From a virus: a stretch of 59,589 bases of DNA. The DNA lies in IMG/VR virus record IMGVR_UViG_3300044463_000021, positions 1-59,589 of that record, one strand, 5' to 3'. This document shows, piece by piece, positions 10,069 to 42,834 of this stretch (its first letter is position 1; each line of letters opens with the position of its first letter). A model generated the notes under the pieces. It ran no database searches and had not been told where the DNA came from. It was given only the letters and a program-made list of their open reading frames with translations. A program made the translations under genes and the position numbers.

Positions 10069-10211
10069 CGGCGTCCCCTTCGGTTGTTTTTGGCAGGGTT
10101 GTACTCGGGCTCAACCTCGACGGCGGCAGGCTCAACGGGTTCGGTATCGGCAGGCTCGGCCTGATCCTCAGCCCAAACGTATTTGCCACGGCGATACTCG
10201 TCAGCGTTCAC
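10065..10211 (-). CDS. Small acidic protein (48 aa), not in the ORF track.
   Basis: GTGA overlaps occur at both ends. Hand translation gives VNADEYRRGKYVWAEDQAEPADTEPVEPAAVEVEPEYNPAKNNRRGRR. Confidence 0.4.
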   Translation of the reverse strand: MNADEYRRGKYVWAEDQAEPADTEPVEPAAVEVEPEYNPAKNNRRGRR

Positions 10212-13200
10212 CGCGCGACCTCCACGTCGAGCACGTACGCCCCGCCCCAGTCGCCCTTGAGTTCTCCCCGGCCGTGCTGGGCCACGACCCGGAAGGTCAG
10301 ACCGCGGTCCAGCAGAATTTCCGACTCCTGCTGATCACGCTCTGTCCCTTTACGGTCAGCCATGCGGATCGCCGAGGTGCCCTCTGGGACCGTGATCCGC
10401 AGGACCGTTCCACCGAACCAAGAAGCATGTGCTGCGTCGGTAGTGGTGGAGACGAAGGCCTTGTCGGTGAACTCTTTGCCGACAAGGTTGCGTCGCTCGC
10501 CGATCGCCTCATCCGGCCTGACGCCGCCGATCCTTTCGGCACCGCGATACACAAGGATCGGCTCGGGCAGTGGACTTTCGGCCATCACCGCGTCGATTGC
10601 TTTGACGCGCGCTTTGGTCTCGGGCGTCATCTTCTCGGTGCCCCGCATTTGCGCGCTCATCTCGAACGAACCCGGGCGGCCAGATGCGGTTTCCGCCCTG
10701 TTGTCGCCCGCCCGATACCACAAGGCGTCAGCTCGGGGGTCCTTGGCCGCAGTTAGGGCATCCAGGCTGCGTGGCAGCACAGCCAGCGCGGCATCGCCGG
10801 TAACTGCATCAGGGCTAGTCCGCCGGTCCGTTTGCGTTTCGGCAGGCACAGCCTTCTTGCGCGGCTCCGCCTTCTTGCGTGGGGCACGTTTCGCCGGGGG
10901 CTTCGGTGCAGGCTCGGCCTCCGGAACGGCCACCACCTCAGGCACATCGGGCAGCTTCTTGCCCCGCCCAGGCCTGCCGTGCACCTTCTGGTCTGGGTGC
11001 CCTGGATGGTTATACAGCGCCTGCGGCAGTACGACCGCTGTATTCGACACGTCACCGGCCAGAGACCGGTCAGCCAACTCCTCCAACAAGTCTGCGAAAT
11101 CGGCGGCCTCGTCAAAGTCTTCGAGCAGCAGGACATCTGTCTCGGCCTCGTCGGGATTGCCCACCTTGTCGGATGGCCCAATCTCCACCAGCCCACTGGT
11201 CCACAGCAGCGCAGACAGCTCACCATGATCGCCGAGCGGTACGCGGCTTAGCTCGACATGCTCATCGCCCAGCTTCCACCCGGGAAGGGTGGTGGCCCGG
11301 AACCCATCCAGAACGCCAGCAAGCTGCTTCGCCTCTTGAGGGGGTAGGAAAAATCCGCCGTTGTCGAAGTCCAGGGTGATATCGCCGTCGCCAGCGATCG
11401 ACATCGACACCTCGCCGTAGGCGGTCTCCATCGACGCCTCACGCCGGTTCGCCTTCGCATGCCTGCGCTCGCGGAGGTCCTTCAACGCCTCCAACGCGGT
11501 TTCGGCCTCACCGTTGTCGTCTTCGTCCTCACCCATGTCCTTCGTGAGCTTCGACAGTTTGGCCATCAGGTCGTCCAGTTCGGACACCACCTGACCCGCA
11601 GACTTGGAAAACCGGCCACGACGGTCACGTTTATGCTGCGACTCGGTGAACTCCGCACGCGGCAGACCGGCACGATTCGCCAGCGGACGCCACACCACCG
11701 CCTGCGGGAGGCGAGGAGCAGCGTTCTCGATACCCGGCCACTCCTCATAAGAGCCGAACGTTTCGATCGCCTCAAACGCCTCGAATGCCGGATGCCGATA
11801 GTCGCCAGGCCACGCGACCTTCCAGCCACCGTCCACGGGGCCGAAACTCAACGTCTCCGACCCATAATTCGGATCGTCTGGTCCACCCGTTATCGCACCG
11901 TCCCGGTGGACCCGAACGCGGCCCAAGTTAGTGTCAACATCGATCGTGTCCACATCCGGGTACACGACGTCACCGTTGTCATCCTCACCGGCCTTGACGA
12001 AGGTCTCGAACTCGTCGAAGCCCTCCCAGACAACGTTCTGGGCGTTCCGGATCCGAGTCCATGACTTGCCGTCAAAGGCAGGCTCCACCACCGTGCCGTC
12101 AGCGGCGTTCAGCCTCAAGCCGACTTTGCGGTCATCGGTGGGGAACACATCCAAAGGCCCCGACGCCATCGCGACGCGTGACACACCCGCTGACCGGCGC
12201 ACCGACTGTGACAAGGCTCCGGCTTCAGCCCGCGAAAGTTTGATCTTCTCGTCGGAGTCGAGCAGCTCCAACTCAACGAGGCCTTCGCCGTCGTAGGAAA
12301 CCTCGGCGAACCCAGATGGCTGGCTACGGTCGCCGCCGTCGTCGGGATAGGAGTACACCGACTTCCGGTCGGCGTCGTAGTCCGGATCGGCCGCGCTCTC
12401 CAGCACCTCAGCCAGCTTCCACCGCGCACCATTGTCCAGCCCACCCGACTTGCCTGTACCGCCCGCATTGTTGGCCAAAGACAGCTGCAAACCGCCCTTG
12501 CCGACGGTTGCGGTGACAGTTCCGTTGGCGAACATGTGCTCCCGGTGGAAGGCAGGGATACCGCCGAACGCCGCCCATTTCCCGTCGTCGTCGCGGCGTT
12601 GGGTGGGGTCGTATTTGGCCAGGCGTTGCCGGGACTGCTGCACCCGCACCTGAAAAAACACCGTCCCAGCCAGGTTCGACACCGACGGAGCGGCCACCAG
12701 CAGCATGTCCACGAACACGCGGCCCTCATCCGGATCGTCGAGCTGAAGAACACCCTCACCATCTGGATCGTCAACCACATCCGGGTCACCGATCTGGAAG
12801 ACACCAGAACCACCGCGGGTGACCTTCAGCTCCCCGTCGGCTGTGGTGAACTCGCCAACCACAGCGTTGTAGTCATCCCAGGCAGGTGACTCGTACCACT
12901 CATTGAGCTGCTGATGCCACCACTGCGAATACTCCTCCCGTGTCGTGACCGACGCGGGCACCTCCCACTCGGGAAGCTCCGGAGACGCAACGACAGGCAG
13001 AGCCGCGAACTCGTTGATCGCAGCCGACACCTCCCGTGCCTGCTGTGGCGTGAACCGGACACTGCCCTCGTCCCAGTCGACGCCTATGTCACCGTCGGTG
13101 TACGTCGTGAAGGCCAACTCGCCGCTGGCGGAGTCCATGACCAGACCGCGGCCATCGTCTTCGGGCTCGTCCACGTTCAGGTCGTCGTCGTCCACATCGG

Positions 13201-14308
13201 ACGACTCCAACCCGCGCAGCTGATCCATCGCCCGGTCAAGTTCAGCCCGCTCGTCGTCGCCCAGCTTGCCGCGCAACGCCTCCAGCTTCTCCAGCACCGA
13301 ACCGAGGGCACCCGTTCGCGTAAACCGGCCCTTGCCGTCACGTTTGTGCAGGCTCTCGTTGAAGTCGGCGCGCAGCAACAGCGCCTGCGCCTGCTCGAAA
13401 CGCATCCCCATCAACTCGACGATGATCTCGTCCAGGTCGCGTACCTTCGTGCCGGACAGCCGCTGCCGCAATGCACGCAGCGTCGCCAACGCTGCTGCCA
13501 CGTCAGGCTCGACCTGCGCCCGCAGGCGTGCAGTATCAGCCGCATCCTTCTTGCCGTGCGTCAGCGGAATGTCTGTGACCTCACCAGCGAACGCCACCCG
13601 GATACGGTCGAAGGCAATCAGGCCGACCCGGTCGGTCAGCTCCTCCACCCGGCCCGCATCATCGGTGTACTCAAGCGTCAGGTGCGGAACGAAAGGCTTG
13701 TGTGGCTCGGGCAGGTCCGCGCCATAGTCCTCAACCGCCGTCTCGGCAGCGGCATGCGCTTTGACGATGTCGTCGCCGCCCAAGCCGAGCACGACACATG
13801 GCTCGTCGCCAGCGGGATTGAAGATCGCCACGTTGAACGCGTCAGCGGTGAACGGGCGCAGCTGCTCCGCATAGGCGCGCACCAGTTCGATCAGATGCTC
13901 GCGTGACTGGGCGCTGAAGTCCGCGCCTTTGCCCAGATAGCGCAGGGTGACGTGAAGCTCATCGGCTGGCTCACCACCCTCGACTGCCAGCCGTGTCGCA
14001 TCGGCGGCTGTTGGGACCAGTGCGATCATCGCACCCGTGTGCGCCTCGGCAGCAGCACGTGGCCGTGTCAGCACATCCGCACGGGCCAACACGCCGATAC
14101 CGGCAATCAACGCCAGCGCATCGGCCACAAAGGCGTCCTGCGCATCGCCAGCAGCATCCAGATCCGCGTGATGCTGGTTGTAATCGGAGCCATCCACGCG
14201 GCCTATCGGACTGAACGCTGAGCCCGCCGAGTGCACGTTCGCCAACGCCCACTTGGTGTGCAGCTGGCGAACAGCCCGCAGCCGCTCCTGCCTCGGAGTC
14301 AACGTCAT
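10208..14308 (-). CDS. Giant head-module multidomain protein (1366 aa) with a 2H phosphoesterase (LigT-like) domain and a C-terminal ADP-ribosyltransferase domain.
   Basis: H-x-T motifs ELHVTLRYLG and VPHLTLEY. ART triad LVYRGAE, FVSTTTD, QESEILLD. Repeated HKRDxxGRF-type motifs. The start was taken at the ATGA-coupled ATG 14308; the track ORF extends to 14362. Confidence 0.75.
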   Translation of the reverse strand: MTLTPRQERLRAVRQLHTKWALANVHSAGSAFSPIGRVDGSDYNQHHADLDAAGDAQDAFVADALALIAGIGVLARADVLTRPRAAAEAHTGAMIALVPTAADATRLAVEGGEPADELHVTLRYLGKGADFSAQSREHLIELVRAYAEQLRPFTADAFNVAIFNPAGDEPCVVLGLGGDDIVKAHAAAETAVEDYGADLPEPHKPFVPHLTLEYTDDAGRVEELTDRVGLIAFDRIRVAFAGEVTDIPLTHGKKDAADTARLRAQVEPDVAAALATLRALRQRLSGTKVRDLDEIIVELMGMRFEQAQALLLRADFNESLHKRDGKGRFTRTGALGSVLEKLEALRGKLGDDERAELDRAMDQLRGLESSDVDDDDLNVDEPEDDGRGLVMDSASGELAFTTYTDGDIGVDWDEGSVRFTPQQAREVSAAINEFAALPVVASPELPEWEVPASVTTREEYSQWWHQQLNEWYESPAWDDYNAVVGEFTTADGELKVTRGGSGVFQIGDPDVVDDPDGEGVLQLDDPDEGRVFVDMLLVAAPSVSNLAGTVFFQVRVQQSRQRLAKYDPTQRRDDDGKWAAFGGIPAFHREHMFANGTVTATVGKGGLQLSLANNAGGTGKSGGLDNGARWKLAEVLESAADPDYDADRKSVYSYPDDGGDRSQPSGFAEVSYDGEGLVELELLDSDEKIKLSRAEAGALSQSVRRSAGVSRVAMASGPLDVFPTDDRKVGLRLNAADGTVVEPAFDGKSWTRIRNAQNVVWEGFDEFETFVKAGEDDNGDVVYPDVDTIDVDTNLGRVRVHRDGAITGGPDDPNYGSETLSFGPVDGGWKVAWPGDYRHPAFEAFEAIETFGSYEEWPGIENAAPRLPQAVVWRPLANRAGLPRAEFTESQHKRDRRGRFSKSAGQVVSELDDLMAKLSKLTKDMGEDEDDNGEAETALEALKDLRERRHAKANRREASMETAYGEVSMSIAGDGDITLDFDNGGFFLPPQEAKQLAGVLDGFRATTLPGWKLGDEHVELSRVPLGDHGELSALLWTSGLVEIGPSDKVGNPDEAETDVLLLEDFDEAADFADLLEELADRSLAGDVSNTAVVLPQALYNHPGHPDQKVHGRPGRGKKLPDVPEVVAVPEAEPAPKPPAKRAPRKKAEPRKKAVPAETQTDRRTSPDAVTGDAALAVLPRSLDALTAAKDPRADALWYRAGDNRAETASGRPGSFEMSAQMRGTEKMTPETKARVKAIDAVMAESPLPEPILVYRGAERIGGVRPDEAIGERRNLVGKEFTDKAFVSTTTDAAHASWFGGTVLRITVPEGTSAIRMADRKGTERDQQESEILLDRGLTFRVVAQHGRGELKGDWGGAYVLDVEVAR

Positions 14309-15204
14309 GGAGAGGTCACCCCGCGCCAACTCGACCCCATCAAAATTGCCTTGCCGATCCACCAGTCATCCCGACCGGCGCCCGGCCAACGACCCACCTG
14401 GGAAATCTCAAACGGCGTCGGGTTTTCCGCATTACCCTCGGCGGCCGCGAACAGGCGCTCCGACAGTGCCTCGGCTGCCGCCAGCTGCTCCTCGCGGCGC
14501 TCCTGCCTTATCAGGTCAACGCGAAGCGGGTACTTCTCATCGGCGAGTGAGGCCTCACCGCTCAACGAGTCAATGGCCGCAAACGCGCGCTGGGCTACCT
14601 TGTCGAAGTCTCGCTCTGACGCCCAGTCATAGCCCTTACGTGCCCATGCGTAGCCGCCCACGTCAATGTTGGCGGTCAGCTCCACCCGCTCAATGCCGCT
14701 GTCGCGGTACCAGCGAAACAGGTGCTGGTTGAAACGTTCGGCAAAGCCCTGCCCCTGAACTGTCCGGTCCAGCTCGAGCAGCGTGTGTTCAACCGAGATC
14801 CCGTCTGTTTCGTCAGCCGTGACGGTGCGAACGAAATGGCCAACCTTATTGCCGTCGCCGTCGCGAACACTTCCGCTGATCTTCGTTTCGCCGTCGGACA
14901 CCGCGATGGCTACATCCGATGTGGACAGGTCGCCAAATGTGCCCGTGAAGCCCTCTACTATCGCGGCTCTTACGTCGGCGTCTAGATCGTCGGAATCATC
15001 GCCGAATTCGGGCTGGCCAAGGAACTTGCCGACATTGGCAATAGCGTCGTAGACGCTTATGCCAAAGTCTTTGGCGAACTTGCCGTCGTCGTCGCGTTTC
15101 TGGCCTGGATCAAACTTCGCGATCGTCGGTCGCAGCAGCGTTTCTGCTCGGGCCAGCACGGCCGCCGACTCCCGCGCGCGCGCAAACAACGTTGGGGTCG
15201 TCAT
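14305..15204 (-). CDS. Head-module protein (299 aa) with a KRDDDGKF motif and a GNAT-like acetyltransferase core.
   Basis: ATG at 15204 overlaps the portal stop. FDPGQKRDDDGKFAKDFG. LELDRTVQGQGFAERFNQHLFRWYRDSGIERVELTANIDVGGYAWARKGYDW resembles GNAT motif A. Confidence 0.45.
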   Translation of the reverse strand: MTTPTLFARARESAAVLARAETLLRPTIAKFDPGQKRDDDGKFAKDFGISVYDAIANVGKFLGQPEFGDDSDDLDADVRAAIVEGFTGTFGDLSTSDVAIAVSDGETKISGSVRDGDGNKVGHFVRTVTADETDGISVEHTLLELDRTVQGQGFAERFNQHLFRWYRDSGIERVELTANIDVGGYAWARKGYDWASERDFDKVAQRAFAAIDSLSGEASLADEKYPLRVDLIRQERREEQLAAAEALSERLFAAAEGNAENPTPFEISQVGRWPGAGRDDWWIGKAILMGSSWRGVTSP

Positions 15205-18200
15205 CAGCCCGCCGCCGGATTCCACGTCGCCTTCACAGTTCCCCGACATCGGTCCCGGCCGAGGCAGCCCCGATACTTGCCGCCGCCGTAGTCCACCCAC
15301 GCCGCGATCCACGACGGATAGACGGTGCCGTCGACAGCACCACACTGAATGCAGTTATGGACGAGCACGCCCTCGGTCCAGAACGTCTCGTCGCCAGGGA
15401 CCGTGAAGTCGTATACCTCACCGCAATAATCGTCGTACTCGACACGGGAAATCGTTGACAGCACTACAATTGAGGTATCGAAAAGGTCTGCATCACCTGT
15501 GGCAGAGCGGTCAAGAAGGGACCGCTCTGCAAAGGATGTTCCGTCCGGGCGGCCTGGCATCGCCGAAACCCGGACTACACGCCGCCCACTTGCAAACTGT
15601 GCGGAATCGTCATGACCAAGTCCAACAGGGCCACCGCTGTGTACTGCTCCAACGCATGCAAGTTCGCCGACCCCGAAGTTCGGGCCAAGCTCGGCGCGCC
15701 GAAGCGCGGCCCCATCAAGACTTGCCCCGGATGTGGAACGGACTTCCAAGTCGCTGCCGGTATCGCCCACCGCTACAACTACTGCTCCAAAGCTTGCAGC
15801 AACAACCGTGGAGTCGACGCGATCTGCCAAAGGTGCGGATCCGCCTTCCGGCACAGCCGGACCCAGAACCGCCACTACTGCAGCGAGGCCTGCCGGCGAC
15901 CCCCCATCATCGTCAGCTGCGCTCACTGCGGCACCGAGTTCAGGATCTTGCCAGCCAAGTCGGGCATCAACAACTACTGCACCCAGCGGTGCTACTTTGC
16001 CAGCGGAACCGAGACCAGCATCGAACGTGTGGTCCGCGAAACCCTCGAATACCTGGGCTACAGCCACCGGACCCAGGCCCAGATCGGACGCTGGACTGTC
16101 GACTTTGTTGTCGGTACCTGGCTCGTCATCGAAGCAGACGGTGCCTACTGGCACTCGTTGCGCCCAGATGTTGACCTGCGGAAGACCACCGACCTGTCCC
16201 GGCGCGGCTTCCATGTCTGGCGACTGCCTGAGTCCGAAATCCTCGCCACCGGGTTCGCCGCAGACCTTGAGCGTCGCTTGGTCGACCACGAGGTCGCCTT
16301 CGGCGAGATCGCCCGCTTCACGCCAGGCGAATCCATCCCCGTCGCGTACCAGCACAGGGTGGTCCCACGTCAGGCGAAGCGTTCTGCCGTCCGCCAGGTG
16401 CACCCTGGTCAGCTGCTCATGGACTTCGGAGACGGTGATTACTGACGGCCTCGTCCAGTTGCCCGCATGGGTCAGCAGTTCGTCGTCGAGGGTGACGTCC
16501 TTGGCGTAGACAAGCCCCGCCGGTGTGGTCACCCGCATGTCAGGCGCGAGACACGTATTGACGTCGTTCACTTCGGCGCTGCTGTAGATGATCTGCGGGA
16601 CGTAGTCGTCATCAACGGGCAGCACTGGATCGCCGGGAGACCCGGGGTCGCCGCCCGCCGCTGACTCCACCTCACGCGCCCCAAGCAGACGCCCCTGATT
16701 TTGGGCACGCGTCAGGACACCGCCCAGCTGCCCCGACAGCGCCCGATCCGACAGGCCGTCCAGCGCACCATCCACTGCAGCCAAAACCTCGGCCGGCGGC
16801 ACGCCAGGCGCGAACGCAGACACCGCAGCCCTCGCCGCCACAGCCGCAAACCCGGCACCGAGAAGGACTGCGGCGGCCACAGCCACCGGACCCAACATCG
16901 ACTCATCCGGGGCCGGCGGCTCCACCACAGGTGCACCCTGCGCCGCCAGATCGTCCACCACCCGCTGTCCCGACACCGCCGCAAGGTCTGTCATCGCCGC
17001 CGTGATCGCAGCAGCAGCCTCACCCGTCGACACCGACATGCGCGCGAGAGCGGCAGGGTCGTTCGCGGCGACCGCCTGCTCCACCTGGGCACGGATCTCC
17101 ACACGCTGAGCCGCAGACACCGCGGGCCACGCCGCCAGCAACGCTGCCAGCGCTGTCTCCCAGTCGCCCTGCACACCCGCCAGCTCCGGATCATCCGTCG
17201 GCGCCTGATTGCGTAGCGTCGGCGCGAGCAGTGCCTGCAACGGATCCGGCTTACCCGCAGGCTTACCGCCCGGCACACCGGGGGCTGCAGGCGGGGCTGG
17301 AGGCTCAGGCTTCTCAAACTTGATGGCTGGCAGCCCAAACTTTTCACACGCATCCGCGAAATCAGCACCCAACGGCACCAGGGTGGCGACCGCTTGAACC
17401 CTCGACGTCCGCGACGTGTTCTCCGCCTCAGTGTCCTCCGAAACCGGGGACACGTAGTCGAACTCCAGCCCGACACCCGTGCTGCCGAACTGCGGCAAAA
17501 CCCTCCGGTTCAGGGCACCCTTCCAGCGTTCCAGACGCGGTACGAGCAGCCACTGCGCAAACATGGCGATCGACGCCTCGCCCTGCGCCCGGTTGACATC
17601 GTCAACCTCGCCCAACGCAAACTTGGGGAACCCGTACGCCTGCTTGATGCCGGCCTCGGTCACCCCACGCAGCTCGGTGAACTGCATGTCCCGCTGCGAG
17701 ATGGTCCGCTCAACCCACTTGCCGTGCTCCAGCAGCGCCACCCGGTGCGCGTTGGCTACGCCGCGGTGCTGCTCATTCCACCGTTCACGCAGCTCGTTGA
17801 ACTCGTTGTCGGACAGCGTCTTGGGGACTTCGATGATGCCGCCCGGCTCCGCAGAGTTGAGGAAGAAGTTGCGGTTCCACTCCATGCTGTACCGGGTCGA
17901 GTCGATGTCGGCCTGCACCGAGCGGATCGGACCCAGGCCGCGGTAGTGGTTGTTCGGGTCCGGCCGGCGGATGAACACCACATCGGTGGGCAGCAGCGGC
18001 ACCGGCTCACCGTCAGGGGACCGGTACACGTAGCCGAGGAGGAACTTTTTCGCATCCGGGACCGGTTCCATCCGGTCCGGGCGGATCGGCCACAACTCCA
18101 GCGGGATCGACGCCTTCGACGATTTGCCGATCACCAGCCACGTTTCGCCGGTCAAATCCTGATGCTGCTGCCCAGCCTCGAAAAGTTCCTGCCGCGAGTA

Positions 18201-18515
18201 GAACCGGTTGGGTTCCTGAATCAGGTCCAGGGCGGCGTGGGAGGTGACCTCGGTCCGGTCCTCCTTCAAGCCCGACTTGGCTTTCTTCCACAGCTTCCAC
18301 TCGACGAGGCTGACCGAGGTGGCGAGGCGGTCGACGATGCCGAACACGACACCCGCCGCGTCCATCGCGCTCAGCGCCTGCGTGGTACCCGGATTGCGCA
18401 GCTGCGATGAGAAGATCCCACCTGATGTACGGCCGGTCATCGGCACAGGCGTGTCCATCGTTGCCGGCGCGACGTTCGCGGGGCGGGACAGGACAGCACC
18501 CAGGAACGACTTCAT
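15204..18515 (-). CDS. Portal protein (HK97 family) fused to a MuF-like head morphogenesis domain, interrupted by a 400-codon intein.
   Basis: Portal-type N-terminal ~400 aa. The MuF C-terminal motif is split as ...SSAEVNDVNT / intein / CIQCGAVDGTVYPSW. ATGA coupling to the upstream small gene. Confidence 0.9.
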   Translation of the reverse strand: MKSFLGAVLSRPANVAPATMDTPVPMTGRTSGGIFSSQLRNPGTTQALSAMDAAGVVFGIVDRLATSVSLVEWKLWKKAKSGLKEDRTEVTSHAALDLIQEPNRFYSRQELFEAGQQHQDLTGETWLVIGKSSKASIPLELWPIRPDRMEPVPDAKKFLLGYVYRSPDGEPVPLLPTDVVFIRRPDPNNHYRGLGPIRSVQADIDSTRYSMEWNRNFFLNSAEPGGIIEVPKTLSDNEFNELRERWNEQHRGVANAHRVALLEHGKWVERTISQRDMQFTELRGVTEAGIKQAYGFPKFALGEVDDVNRAQGEASIAMFAQWLLVPRLERWKGALNRRVLPQFGSTGVGLEFDYVSPVSEDTEAENTSRTSRVQAVATLVPLGADFADACEKFGLPAIKFEKPEPPAPPAAPGVPGGKPAGKPDPLQALLAPTLRNQAPTDDPELAGVQGDWETALAALLAAWPAVSAAQRVEIRAQVEQAVAANDPAALARMSVSTGEAAAAITAAMTDLAAVSGQRVVDDLAAQGAPVVEPPAPDESMLGPVAVAAAVLLGAGFAAVAARAAVSAFAPGVPPAEVLAAVDGALDGLSDRALSGQLGGVLTRAQNQGRLLGAREVESAAGGDPGSPGDPVLPVDDDYVPQIIYSSAEVNDVNTCLAPDMRVTTPAGLVYAKDVTLDDELLTHAGNWTRPSVITVSEVHEQLTRVHLADGRTLRLTWDHPVLVRDGDGFAWREAGDLAEGDLVVDQATLKVCGEPGGEDFGLRQSPDMEAAPGQVGGLPQVNIWAQRVPVGTVCFDDEPGTDNKVDSPASDLGLGPVAVAQVFEGFADHTFDAGLGSAGKVAPLGAVVVDARLGWQDPELGAAVSAADDDGGSPAGLAAVVAVLGPAVPEGGSAPLADRVDSTVVAASFGAVVVAVGDTGSDLEVRSTSGASLDGAALRRAELGPNFGVGELACVGAVHSGGPVGLGHDDSAQFASGRRVVRVSAMPGRPDGTSFAERSLLDRSATGDADLFDTSIVVLSTISRVEYDDYCGEVYDFTVPGDETFWTEGVLVHNCIQCGAVDGTVYPSWIAAWVDYGGGKYRGCLGRDRCRGTVKATWNPAAG
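15455..15470 (+). promoter_or_regulatory. Promoter-like hexamers TTGACA (15455-15460) and TACAAT (15465-15470) just 5' of the nested ORF frame opening.
   Basis: They sit in a local AT-richer patch. The spacing between the two hexamers is not canonical, so they cannot form one -35/-10 pair. Confidence 0.25.
15612..16445 (+). CDS. Antisense-nested endonuclease: a tandem zinc-ribbon array plus a DUF559/Vsr-like PD-(D/E)xK nuclease. It has 277 aa from the first ATG, and the frame is open from 15474.
   Basis: Four or five modules of C-x2-C-G...Y-C-[ST]-x2-C, then RWTVDFVVGTWLVIEADGAYWH...RRGFHVWRL. Plus-frame codons mostly end in G/C. The ORF lies wholly inside the intein. Confidence 0.65.
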   Translation: MTKSNRATAVYCSNACKFADPEVRAKLGAPKRGPIKTCPGCGTDFQVAAGIAHRYNYCSKACSNNRGVDAICQRCGSAFRHSRTQNRHYCSEACRRPPIIVSCAHCGTEFRILPAKSGINNYCTQRCYFASGTETSIERVVRETLEYLGYSHRTQAQIGRWTVDFVVGTWLVIEADGAYWHSLRPDVDLRKTTDLSRRGFHVWRLPESEILATGFAADLERRLVDHEVAFGEIARFTPGESIPVAYQHRVVPRQAKRSAVRQVHPGQLLMDFGDGDY

Positions 18516-42564: not shown

Positions 42565-42650
42565 CAGCACGGGTGCTGCGCTTATCTGTCGCCTAATTGA
42601 CAGCACTATTGCTGTTCTTTCCTTGTGCTACAGCGGTGGTGCTGTAGAAT
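42565..42650. promoter_or_regulatory. Divergent control region with three inverted repeats sharing ACAGC/GCTGT half-sites and a plus-strand promoter, TTGTGC-16 nt-TAGAAT.
   Basis: CAGCACggGTGCTG at 42565-78. ACAGCActatTGCTGT at 42600-15. CTACAGCggtggtGCTGTAG at 42628-47, overlapping TAGAAT at 42645-50. TTGACA at 42597. Confidence 0.5.
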
Positions 42651-42834
42651 TTGAGGTACAAGAGAACAGGCAGAGCTGGAGCCGCCCGAGCCGGGTCGCC
42701 ACGAAAGCCGAGCTACCACACAGTGACCACCAGCCGGACAGGGATTCTCCCGGCGAACGAAACCAAGGTGCTCGACTTCGACTAGCGCCTTGGCAGCCGG
42801 GATCACCCCGGCTGATTCAGTCGAAGGGGAACAA

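Follow-up and report, generated by a model that had tools for sequence, protein, structure and literature searches.

The 59,589-nucleotide (nt) stretch of viral DNA analysed here (IMG/VR record IMGVR_UViG_3300044463_000021, positions 1 to 59,589; the whole stretch is called the window below) carries within its phage portal gene what we believe, with a probability of roughly 80%, to be a mobile intein with its homing endonuclease gene on the opposite strand. The intein interrupts a minus-strand open reading frame (ORF) in which a portal protein is fused to a MuF-like domain, and the nuclease frame runs antisense to the middle of the intein, codon against codon. This reading is carried by the anatomy of the element, the family membership of the nuclease, a change of the strand under selection within the intein, the recurrence of the same architecture in other loci, and the presence or absence of the intein at one precise site. 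The parts of the minus-strand gene are as follows.

15204 to 18515, minus strand: portal protein fused to a divergent MuF-like C-terminal domain and interrupted by the intein; 1103 codons plus stop.
15354 to 16553, minus strand: class-1 intein, 400 codons, residues 655-1054 of the ORF.
16281 to 16553, minus strand: N-terminal splicing region, intein residues 1-91, with the TWDH of block B; AlphaFold2 pLDDT (predicted local distance difference test) 70-81, beta strands; constraint on the minus frame.
15465 to 16280, minus strand: central linker, 272 codons, intein residues 92-363, rich in G/A/V/D; pLDDT ~20-25, no family match.
15354 to 15464, minus strand: C-terminal splicing region, intein residues 364-400, ...VYDFTVPGDETFWTEGVLVHN; pLDDT 61-76 over residues 364-391; constraint on the minus frame.

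The intein is bounded by a Cys1 codon at 16551-16553 and an Asn400 codon at 15354-15356, and the +1 Cys codon follows at 15351-15353. It starts with CLAPDMRV, has LTWDHPVLV as block B and ends with GVLVHN before the Cys, and its class-1 signature residues (C1, T62-W-D-H65, H399-N400 and the +1 Cys) are invariant among relatives. The minus-strand ORF matches Pfam Intein_splicing with 43.4 bits (cutoff 35.8), and the intein matches NCBIfam intein_Cterm with 24.2 bits (cutoff 15.6). These motifs and matches bear out the original prediction, made from the sequence alone, of a 400-codon Hint intein. Its proposal that short N- and C-terminal splicing parts flank a stretch of filler also held, with residues 1-91 and 364-400 behaving as minus-strand coding sequence. 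Its motifs are intact and it sits inside a portal gene, so the precursor would be expected to splice.

In an AlphaFold model of the intein, built on a shallow four-sequence alignment, confidence was confined to residues 1-91 and 364-391 (beta strands, pLDDT about 60-80); residues 376-400 are almost invariant among relatives. Searching for homologs of the intein protein yielded no more than 4 proteins, apparently because the opposite strand is the one that gene callers usually pick. Profile searches with minus-frame residues 92-363 found no endonuclease or other family in Pfam or PHROGs, and PHROGs gave no match to the intein as a whole. A functional minus-frame domain in the insert was rejected on this lack of a family match and a pLDDT of ~22, and we regard the central linker as antisense read-through of the nuclease gene, constrained only to remain stop-free. 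A split intein, or fractured gene, was also rejected, since the 1103-codon ORF is single and continuous. In a collection of 50,697 phage records, megablast with the region found no match, and tblastn with the intein and its flanks found only a weak Vibrio Hint match.

Opposite the intein lie the features of the plus strand.

15474 to 16445, plus strand: frame encoding a homing-endonuclease homolog, in exact antisense codon register with the intein; 323 codons plus TGA.
15489 to 15992, plus strand: five 4-Cys zinc-ribbon modules (CxxC...CxxC), residues 6-173, seen in the translation and in the family alignment (A1).
16005 to 16259, plus strand: EDxHD/Vsr-like (DUF559) nuclease domain, residues 178-262; Pfam DUF559 E 1.5e-8; pLDDT 87-96.
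16260 to 16442, plus strand: C-terminal tail of the ORF, overlapping the N-terminal splicing region of the intein; pLDDT <40 for residues 289-323; probably unconstrained read-through to the first stop.

The plus frame opens after a TGA at 15471-15473 and ends with the stop codon at 16443-16445. Its translation has, after the five CxxC...CxxC modules, the core ...GRWTVDFVV...LVIEADGAYWHSLRPDVDLRK..., and the earlier description of five zinc modules followed by a Vsr/DUF559-like core agrees with what independent searches found. The DUF559 match (34.9 bits) lies above the Pfam cutoff of 20.6, with sub-threshold matches to the MTES_1575, Vsr and zinc-ribbon (Zn_ribbon) models. Both profile and fold led to PDB 3r3p, which is the catalytic domain of I-Bth0305I, a homing endonuclease. 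The A1 profile matched 3r3p_A at E 6e-14 with the catalytic positions aligned, D210 and H227 of the window protein falling on D196 and H213, which are mutated positions of the 3r3p crystal construct. An AlphaFold model of the plus-strand protein had a mean pLDDT of 77.9, with 87-96 in the nuclease domain, and its top PDB match in Foldseek was again 3r3p (TMt 0.78, E 5e-5).

A database search with the nuclease returned 17 homologs, of which 15 were 49-61% identical to it, at E values as low as 5e-127; identities of 49-66% were reached among homologs. In alignment A1, 53 columns are invariant, among them those of Cys pairs and of the VDF / EADGxYWH / RP.VD.RK core, and all 53 residues, catalytic positions included, are present in the window copy; D210 (VDF), E220 and D222 (EADG), H227 (YWH) and D234 are among the invariant ones. 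Modules 3-5 have invariant Cys pairs, and in module 2 the pairs are conserved to at least 90%; module 1 is missing from the shorter gene calls. The zinc ribbons are presumed to form the DNA-recognition region. At E <= 1e-30 the family counts 230 representatives (50% clusters), a number that rises to 2,453 at E <= 1e-10, and the best identity of the nuclease within the phage collection was 28.5%.

Codon composition and substitution patterns distinguish the two strands. Over the nuclease core (15477-16259), the GC content of third codon positions (GC3) was 0.80 in the plus frame vs 0.54 in the minus frame, as anticipated by the original prediction, in which the nuclease codons ended mostly in G or C; inside the insert, GC3 periodicity left the minus frame. 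The minus-frame GC3 of the portal extein and the splicing blocks was 0.77-0.81. The codon adaptation index (CAI), with the window's own large genes as reference, was 0.61 for the plus frame and 0.43 for the minus frame of the core. To follow substitutions, we aligned eight inteins that occupy one insertion site in related portal/MuF genes (those of the window, L023, L001 and L025-L029). Within the two splicing regions (intein residues 1-76 and 367-400), position 3 of the minus frame was the most variable, with an identity of 0.39-0.51 vs 0.58-0.89 at positions 1 and 2. In the centre of the intein (approximately residues 97-350), the most variable position was position 1 of the minus frame, which is position 3 of the plus frame, and amino-acid identity was higher in the plus frame than in the minus frame, by up to 0.76 vs 0.51. 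The last ~60 codons of the plus ORF overlap the N-terminal splicing region, where the constraint is on the minus frame and the plus protein is predicted to be disordered. At the boundaries of the linker, GC3, CAI and substitution patterns all change strand, and so does purifying selection.

The same layout was found in many other loci. Profile-guided scans for relatives of the nuclease took in 18 loci from genomes together with the best 80 among 177 matches on viral contigs, and at 52 of about 71 distinct loci the nuclease ORF was wholly spanned by a much longer stop-free minus frame. Across these 52 loci, with GC contents of 0.32-0.72, the spanning frame was always in phase 0, the exact register. 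The original prediction had proposed that the nuclease gene avoids TTA, CTA and TCA codons; the window nuclease has none of them, and neither has any nuclease gene in the 52 spanned loci. For four of the lowest-GC loci, 13-21 such codons each would be expected from host-gene codon usage (P 1e-6 to 1e-10). When 40 diverse spanning ORFs were scanned, 38 matched Intein_splicing and 21 matched Phage_Mu_F. All 40 loci aligned with the intein at one shared point of the MuF motif, D-x-R-(T/V) / C-x-x-C (the spaced slash marks the insertion point here and below), and most of the 40 inteins end in ANG.LVHN / C. One locus of low GC content (L068) is likewise a portal-MuF fusion. Because the antisense layout recurs at GC 0.32-0.72, at one MuF site and in register, it is not a high-GC artefact. 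We suggest, tentatively and at slightly short of even odds, that MuF-targeting inteins form a large cross-phylum family of which this is the standard and long-lived architecture, with selection on both strands and an origin from free-standing convergent nucleases.

Free-standing relatives of the nuclease were also seen, convergent with and directly downstream of intein-less MuF genes (L006 from Micromonospora, L011, L079 and L081), and the MuF C-termini beside them carry an intact target motif. Such free-standing convergent nucleases are plausible precursors of the antisense-in-intein layout. In a Streptomyces alboflavus prophage (L001/L002/L005), the same intein with its antisense nuclease is located in a 1704-codon portal-ClpP protease fusion ORF, where the flanks have the same MuF-type motif (...RLDQNT / CTPCADIDG...). 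One assembly retains the long ORF in its gene calls, and the other breaks it for a DUF559 gene (L001 vs L002). In Mycobacterium phage Camster (L105, MW055902) and phage Kari (L106, PV755393), a 27-28%-identical relative of the nuclease adjoins a DNA methylase gene, which appears split in Camster. The annotations of the two phages clash, with Camster gp55 called as a hypothetical protein on the methylase strand and Kari gp58 as an 'endonuclease' on the opposite strand.

Homologs without the intein, found by searching with the spliced C-terminal domain, confirm the precise in-frame junction that had been proposed: P0018-P0021, P0023 and L103 lack exactly residues 655-1054. At the insertion junction the window reads ...EVNDVNT / CIQC..., and the intein-less L103 (P0019) has the identical ...EVNDVNT / CIQCGAVDG.... 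The DNA alignment between L103 and the window skips from 16551 to 15363, and 41 of the 45 nt on the N-side of the junction are identical. The intein is therefore polymorphic for presence and absence at one precise site. A metagenomic contig, L104 (JGI 3300044775), aligns to window positions 15143-16356 and carries an intein that is 100% identical over 15277-16356 except for a 41-bp deletion, and beyond ~77 bp of C-extein it is ~18% divergent from the window. In the alignment, this pattern looks like lateral transfer with a short co-conversion tract.

From family analogy and these comparative patterns we infer transcription, cleavage specificity, splicing and homing, and the most likely account is an intein that tolerates a disordered tether and homes by means of its nuclease. 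The intein would be translated within the portal/MuF-like precursor, its Hint domain would form from residues 1-91 and 364-400, and it would excise, joining ...NT to CIQC.... The ~270 residues between the Hint halves would be a disordered tether, of which the sole demand is that it contain no stop codon. The plus strand would serve as a separate gene for a protein of five zinc ribbons and an EDxHD/Vsr-like catalytic domain, with its -10-type promoter placed in the DNA encoding the start of the C-terminal splicing region of the intein. By analogy with I-Bth0305I, the nuclease would cut intein-less MuF alleles at or near the site coding for D-x-N-T / C-x-x-C, and repair from the intein-bearing allele would copy intein and nuclease together. 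The nuclease gene must avoid TTA, CTA and TCA because these are stops on the other strand, and the register is exact because no other register makes this avoidance feasible.

Two features mark the start of the nuclease gene.

15465 to 15470, plus strand: TACAAT, a -10-type box, 6 nt upstream of the family start position, in leaderless-mRNA geometry.
15477 to 15479, plus strand: ATC where homologs have an ATG or GTG start (MDKxCxxCG), leaving the window copy with no canonical start.

Close homologs start with MDKxCxxCG, at an ATG or GTG codon, and have an nAnnnT box (TACGCT, TACACT, TAGACT and similar) exactly 6 nt upstream. An nAnnnT box, 6 nt and a start codon make up the geometry of leaderless transcripts in actinobacteria. 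This arrangement with ATG or GTG was present in 19 of the 57 distinct loci with a called start, and many other loci have GATATAAT, then a Shine-Dalgarno (SD) motif. In the window, the order is TACAAT (15465-15470), tgaggt, ATC (15477-15479). The original prediction was correct that the plus frame, open from 15474 to 16445, has its first in-frame ATG at 15612 and no ATG, GTG or TTG earlier; it was incomplete in that the family start is an ATC here, 6 nt after the conserved TAnnnT box. TTGACA (15455) and TACAAT (15465), which it had placed just upstream of the frame, were rejected as a -35/-10 promoter pair, being only 4 nt apart, and a sigma-70 scan found no pair. Dassa et al. (PMC2677866) describe such endonuclease genes as bringing their own control elements, which agrees with the promoter pattern here.

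The sequence around the putative promoter has a counterpart elsewhere in the window. TTGACAGCACTA occurs exactly twice, at 15455 and 42597, as had been reported when it was described as shared with the early control region, and AATT(T)GAGGTA occurs at 15468 and 42648 and nowhere else. The shared strings lie in 15455-15477 and 42597-42658, and their expected counts are 0.06 (TTGACAGCACTA) and 0.01 (AATT(T)GAGGTA). The intergenic control region at 42.6 kb has repeated ACAGCAC...GTGCTGT inverted motifs that are operator-like in look. The nuclease promoter may resemble an early phage promoter/operator, or the matches may be due to chance.

Several observations weigh against the favoured reading. 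The conserved start is ATC both in the window and in L104, no correctly spaced SD motif precedes the ATC at 15477-15479, and the window copy of the nuclease may be silent. The deletion in L104, at window positions 15953-15993, shifts the frame of both portal/intein and nuclease; this contig could be a decaying copy or an assembly error, and its pattern of identity and divergence could also come from ordinary mosaic recombination, not nuclease-driven homing. Between the window and L023, the inteins have diverged about as much as the host genes, a pattern compatible with vertical descent. Lastly, in a window of 65% GC, an open antisense frame is by itself unremarkable (2.9 stops expected, P about 0.055). 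The significance of the open antisense frame comes from the related loci.

Among the alternatives, the one that survives best accepts the architecture as described and holds that the window nuclease has already been silenced by an ATG-to-ATC change, the intein being a passenger that is inherited vertically or moved by general recombination. We consider this possible, if on the unlikely side; it would be the early step of decay in the homing cycle that is expected after fixation. An ATC at the conserved start, with no in-frame ATG, GTG or TTG before 15612, is what it calls for, and L104 carries its 41-bp frame-breaking deletion in the same element. L023, the closest relative, has also lost the ATG (ATT at the start position), yet an ATG that the window lacks stands in for it directly before the first Cys. 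However, the rest of the window ORF is intact, with every family-invariant residue in place, and the identical intein beside a divergent flank in L104 suggests recent movement of the ATC allele. A start at 15612 would drop module 1 and half of module 2, and would still give three intact zinc ribbons and the nuclease, as in some shorter relatives that also have three. Translation of the window nuclease is uncertain, and its product would need AUC initiation or the internal ATG.

Less probable still, and in our judgement improbable, is that the nuclease is real and expressed but serves mainly for something other than homing, whether the exclusion of co-infecting phages through MuF cutting or its own persistence as a selfish gene that landed in a mini-intein. 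Free-standing relatives lie directly downstream of intein-less MuF genes, relatives occur in a group I intron as well (I-Bth0305I), and the nuclease gene retains its own promoter, all of which would fit such a role. However, a nuclease that cuts intein-less alleles and is copied into them is by definition homing, one insertion site in 40/40 diverse loci is a signature of site-specific homing, and the presence or absence of the intein at that precise site points the same way. That the plus ORF is a spurious antisense frame kept open by high GC, with a minus-strand domain of unknown type as the true insert, is almost certainly wrong: it draws on the 65% GC of the window, where an exact-antisense frame of such length is not rare, and is refuted by the matches of the plus frame to DUF559 and 3r3p and its conserved homologs, by GC3, CAI and substitution patterns that favour the plus frame, by a minus-frame insert without matches and with a pLDDT of about 22, and by the same layout at GC 0.32-0.45.

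The host gene of this putative mobile intein was assessed in two parts. Pfam Phage_portal (PF04860) covers residues 56-366 of the 1103-codon ORF (E 3.7e-51, 174.6 bits vs a cutoff of 39.1), which settles the portal half of the portal-MuF fusion that had been proposed. The spliced C-terminal domain of the window had no match in Pfam or PHROG searches, and because these were silent we used hhalign against the exteins of MuF-positive relatives. This gave a probability of 87% (E 3.6e-6), with the D..TC..C..G motif in register with the MuF exteins, and the MuF-like label of this divergent domain rests on that profile-profile match.

The linker between the portal and MuF-like domains (window 16566-17390, minus strand) is Ala/Pro/Gly-rich, and GC content at its first codon positions (GC1, 0.76-0.88) exceeds GC3; it resembles the composition flip of the intein centre, yet it has no coding partner on the opposite strand. 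In the intein-less relative L103 (compared with window 16554-18515), gene calls separate the portal (707 aa) from the MuF-like protein (348 aa), with a 4-nt overlap. Portal and MuF-like domains are thus one continuous ORF in the window and two genes in L103, and the window fusion may be lineage-specific or a frameshift difference relative to L103. Two genes downstream of the portal gene, a 1384-codon ORF (window 10208-14362, minus strand) has a 2H phosphoesterase/LigT-like domain at residues 132-246 and a C-terminal ADP-ribosyltransferase toxin-like domain at residues 1242-1359. We take it to resemble the capsid-delivered effector proteins associated with MuF. The best match of the TerL of this phage was at 45%, its best named matches were Arthrobacter phages (~41%), and no close relative of the phage was found in the 50,697-record collection.

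Although the original prediction implied that the antisense arrangement was new, it has already been reported. Gosselin, Arsenault and Gogarten describe, in a 2025 preprint (bioRxiv 10.1101/2025.01.02.630785), actinophage inteins in which LAGLIDADG or VSR-like endonucleases, the latter matching 3R3P, are encoded anti-sense. The non-canonical architectures occurred in four kinds of host protein (DNA polymerase, minor capsid [SPP1 gp7/MuF], terminase and thymidylate synthase). The authors call them rare, credit the anti-sense LAGLIDADG cases to Gorbalenya 1998, and propose that they originate from a free-standing endonuclease gene invading an intein. The window element belongs to this class, and the class itself is not new. 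Like those inteins, it is contiguous, has an endonuclease slot that is unstructured in the intein frame, and carries a Vsr-like/EDxHD nuclease, related to 3R3P, in anti-sense. Unlike them, its host gene is a portal-MuF fusion, the architecture is the majority context of the zinc-ribbon clade (the 52 of about 71 distinct loci given above), and the layout extends far beyond actinophages, to GC 0.32. The likeness is one of description; the 50,697-record phage collection has no detectable relative of the window intein and nothing above 28.5% identity to the nuclease.

Other known systems share some of these features. I-Bth0305I is the prototype EDxHD homing endonuclease, found in a group I intron of a phage recA gene, with NUMOD-like N-terminal motifs and a catalytic domain that lacks the Vsr zinc site (Taylor et al. 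2011, PMC3239194; PDB 3R3P). The window protein has a homologous catalytic domain and is also multidomain with a separate N-terminal region presumed to bind DNA, but it has five 4-Cys zinc ribbons and sits antisense inside an intein. In 'fractured genes', from which the EDxHD/Vsr-like family was predicted, a free-standing Vsr-like endonuclease gene lies between the halves of a split intein (Dassa et al. 2009, PMC2677866). There too, in phage genes, the slot for the intein endonuclease is linked with the same nuclease superfamily, and the endonuclease comes with control elements of its own; however, the intein is in two ORFs, whereas the window intein frame is continuous within 1103 codons and the nuclease is antisense. 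The opposite-strand arrangement is not mentioned in the text of PMC2677866 or PMC3239194. As cited in the 2025 preprint (10.1101/2025.01.02.630785), Gorbalenya 1998 and Gogarten et al. 2002 reported anti-sense LAGLIDADG genes in contiguous inteins; on that account, these also have the endonuclease opposite a contiguous intein, but the nuclease family differs.

What is added here is breadth (GC 0.32-0.72 and one shared MuF site), quantitative evidence of selection, and the start-codon lesion in the window copy. The element offers a clean natural example of the same codons encoding a protein on each strand, and selection visibly passes from one strand to the other at domain boundaries. For annotation, it matters that gene callers choose one strand and break the other, as in the S. 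alboflavus assemblies (L001 vs L002) and in Camster gp55 vs Kari gp58. The zinc-ribbon EDxHD enzymes, which form an uncharacterised group of nucleases with long targets, are of interest as tools. The findings support a model in which the splicing domain came first and the endonuclease invaded later, and they provide candidate intermediates. If the antisense layout is indeed the standard architecture of a large MuF-targeting family, these inteins would be dual-coding elements kept by stop-codon avoidance in the nuclease and by an autonomous promoter inside intein-coding DNA, and the antisense orientation could itself be functional, uncoupling expression of the nuclease from late expression of the structural genes.

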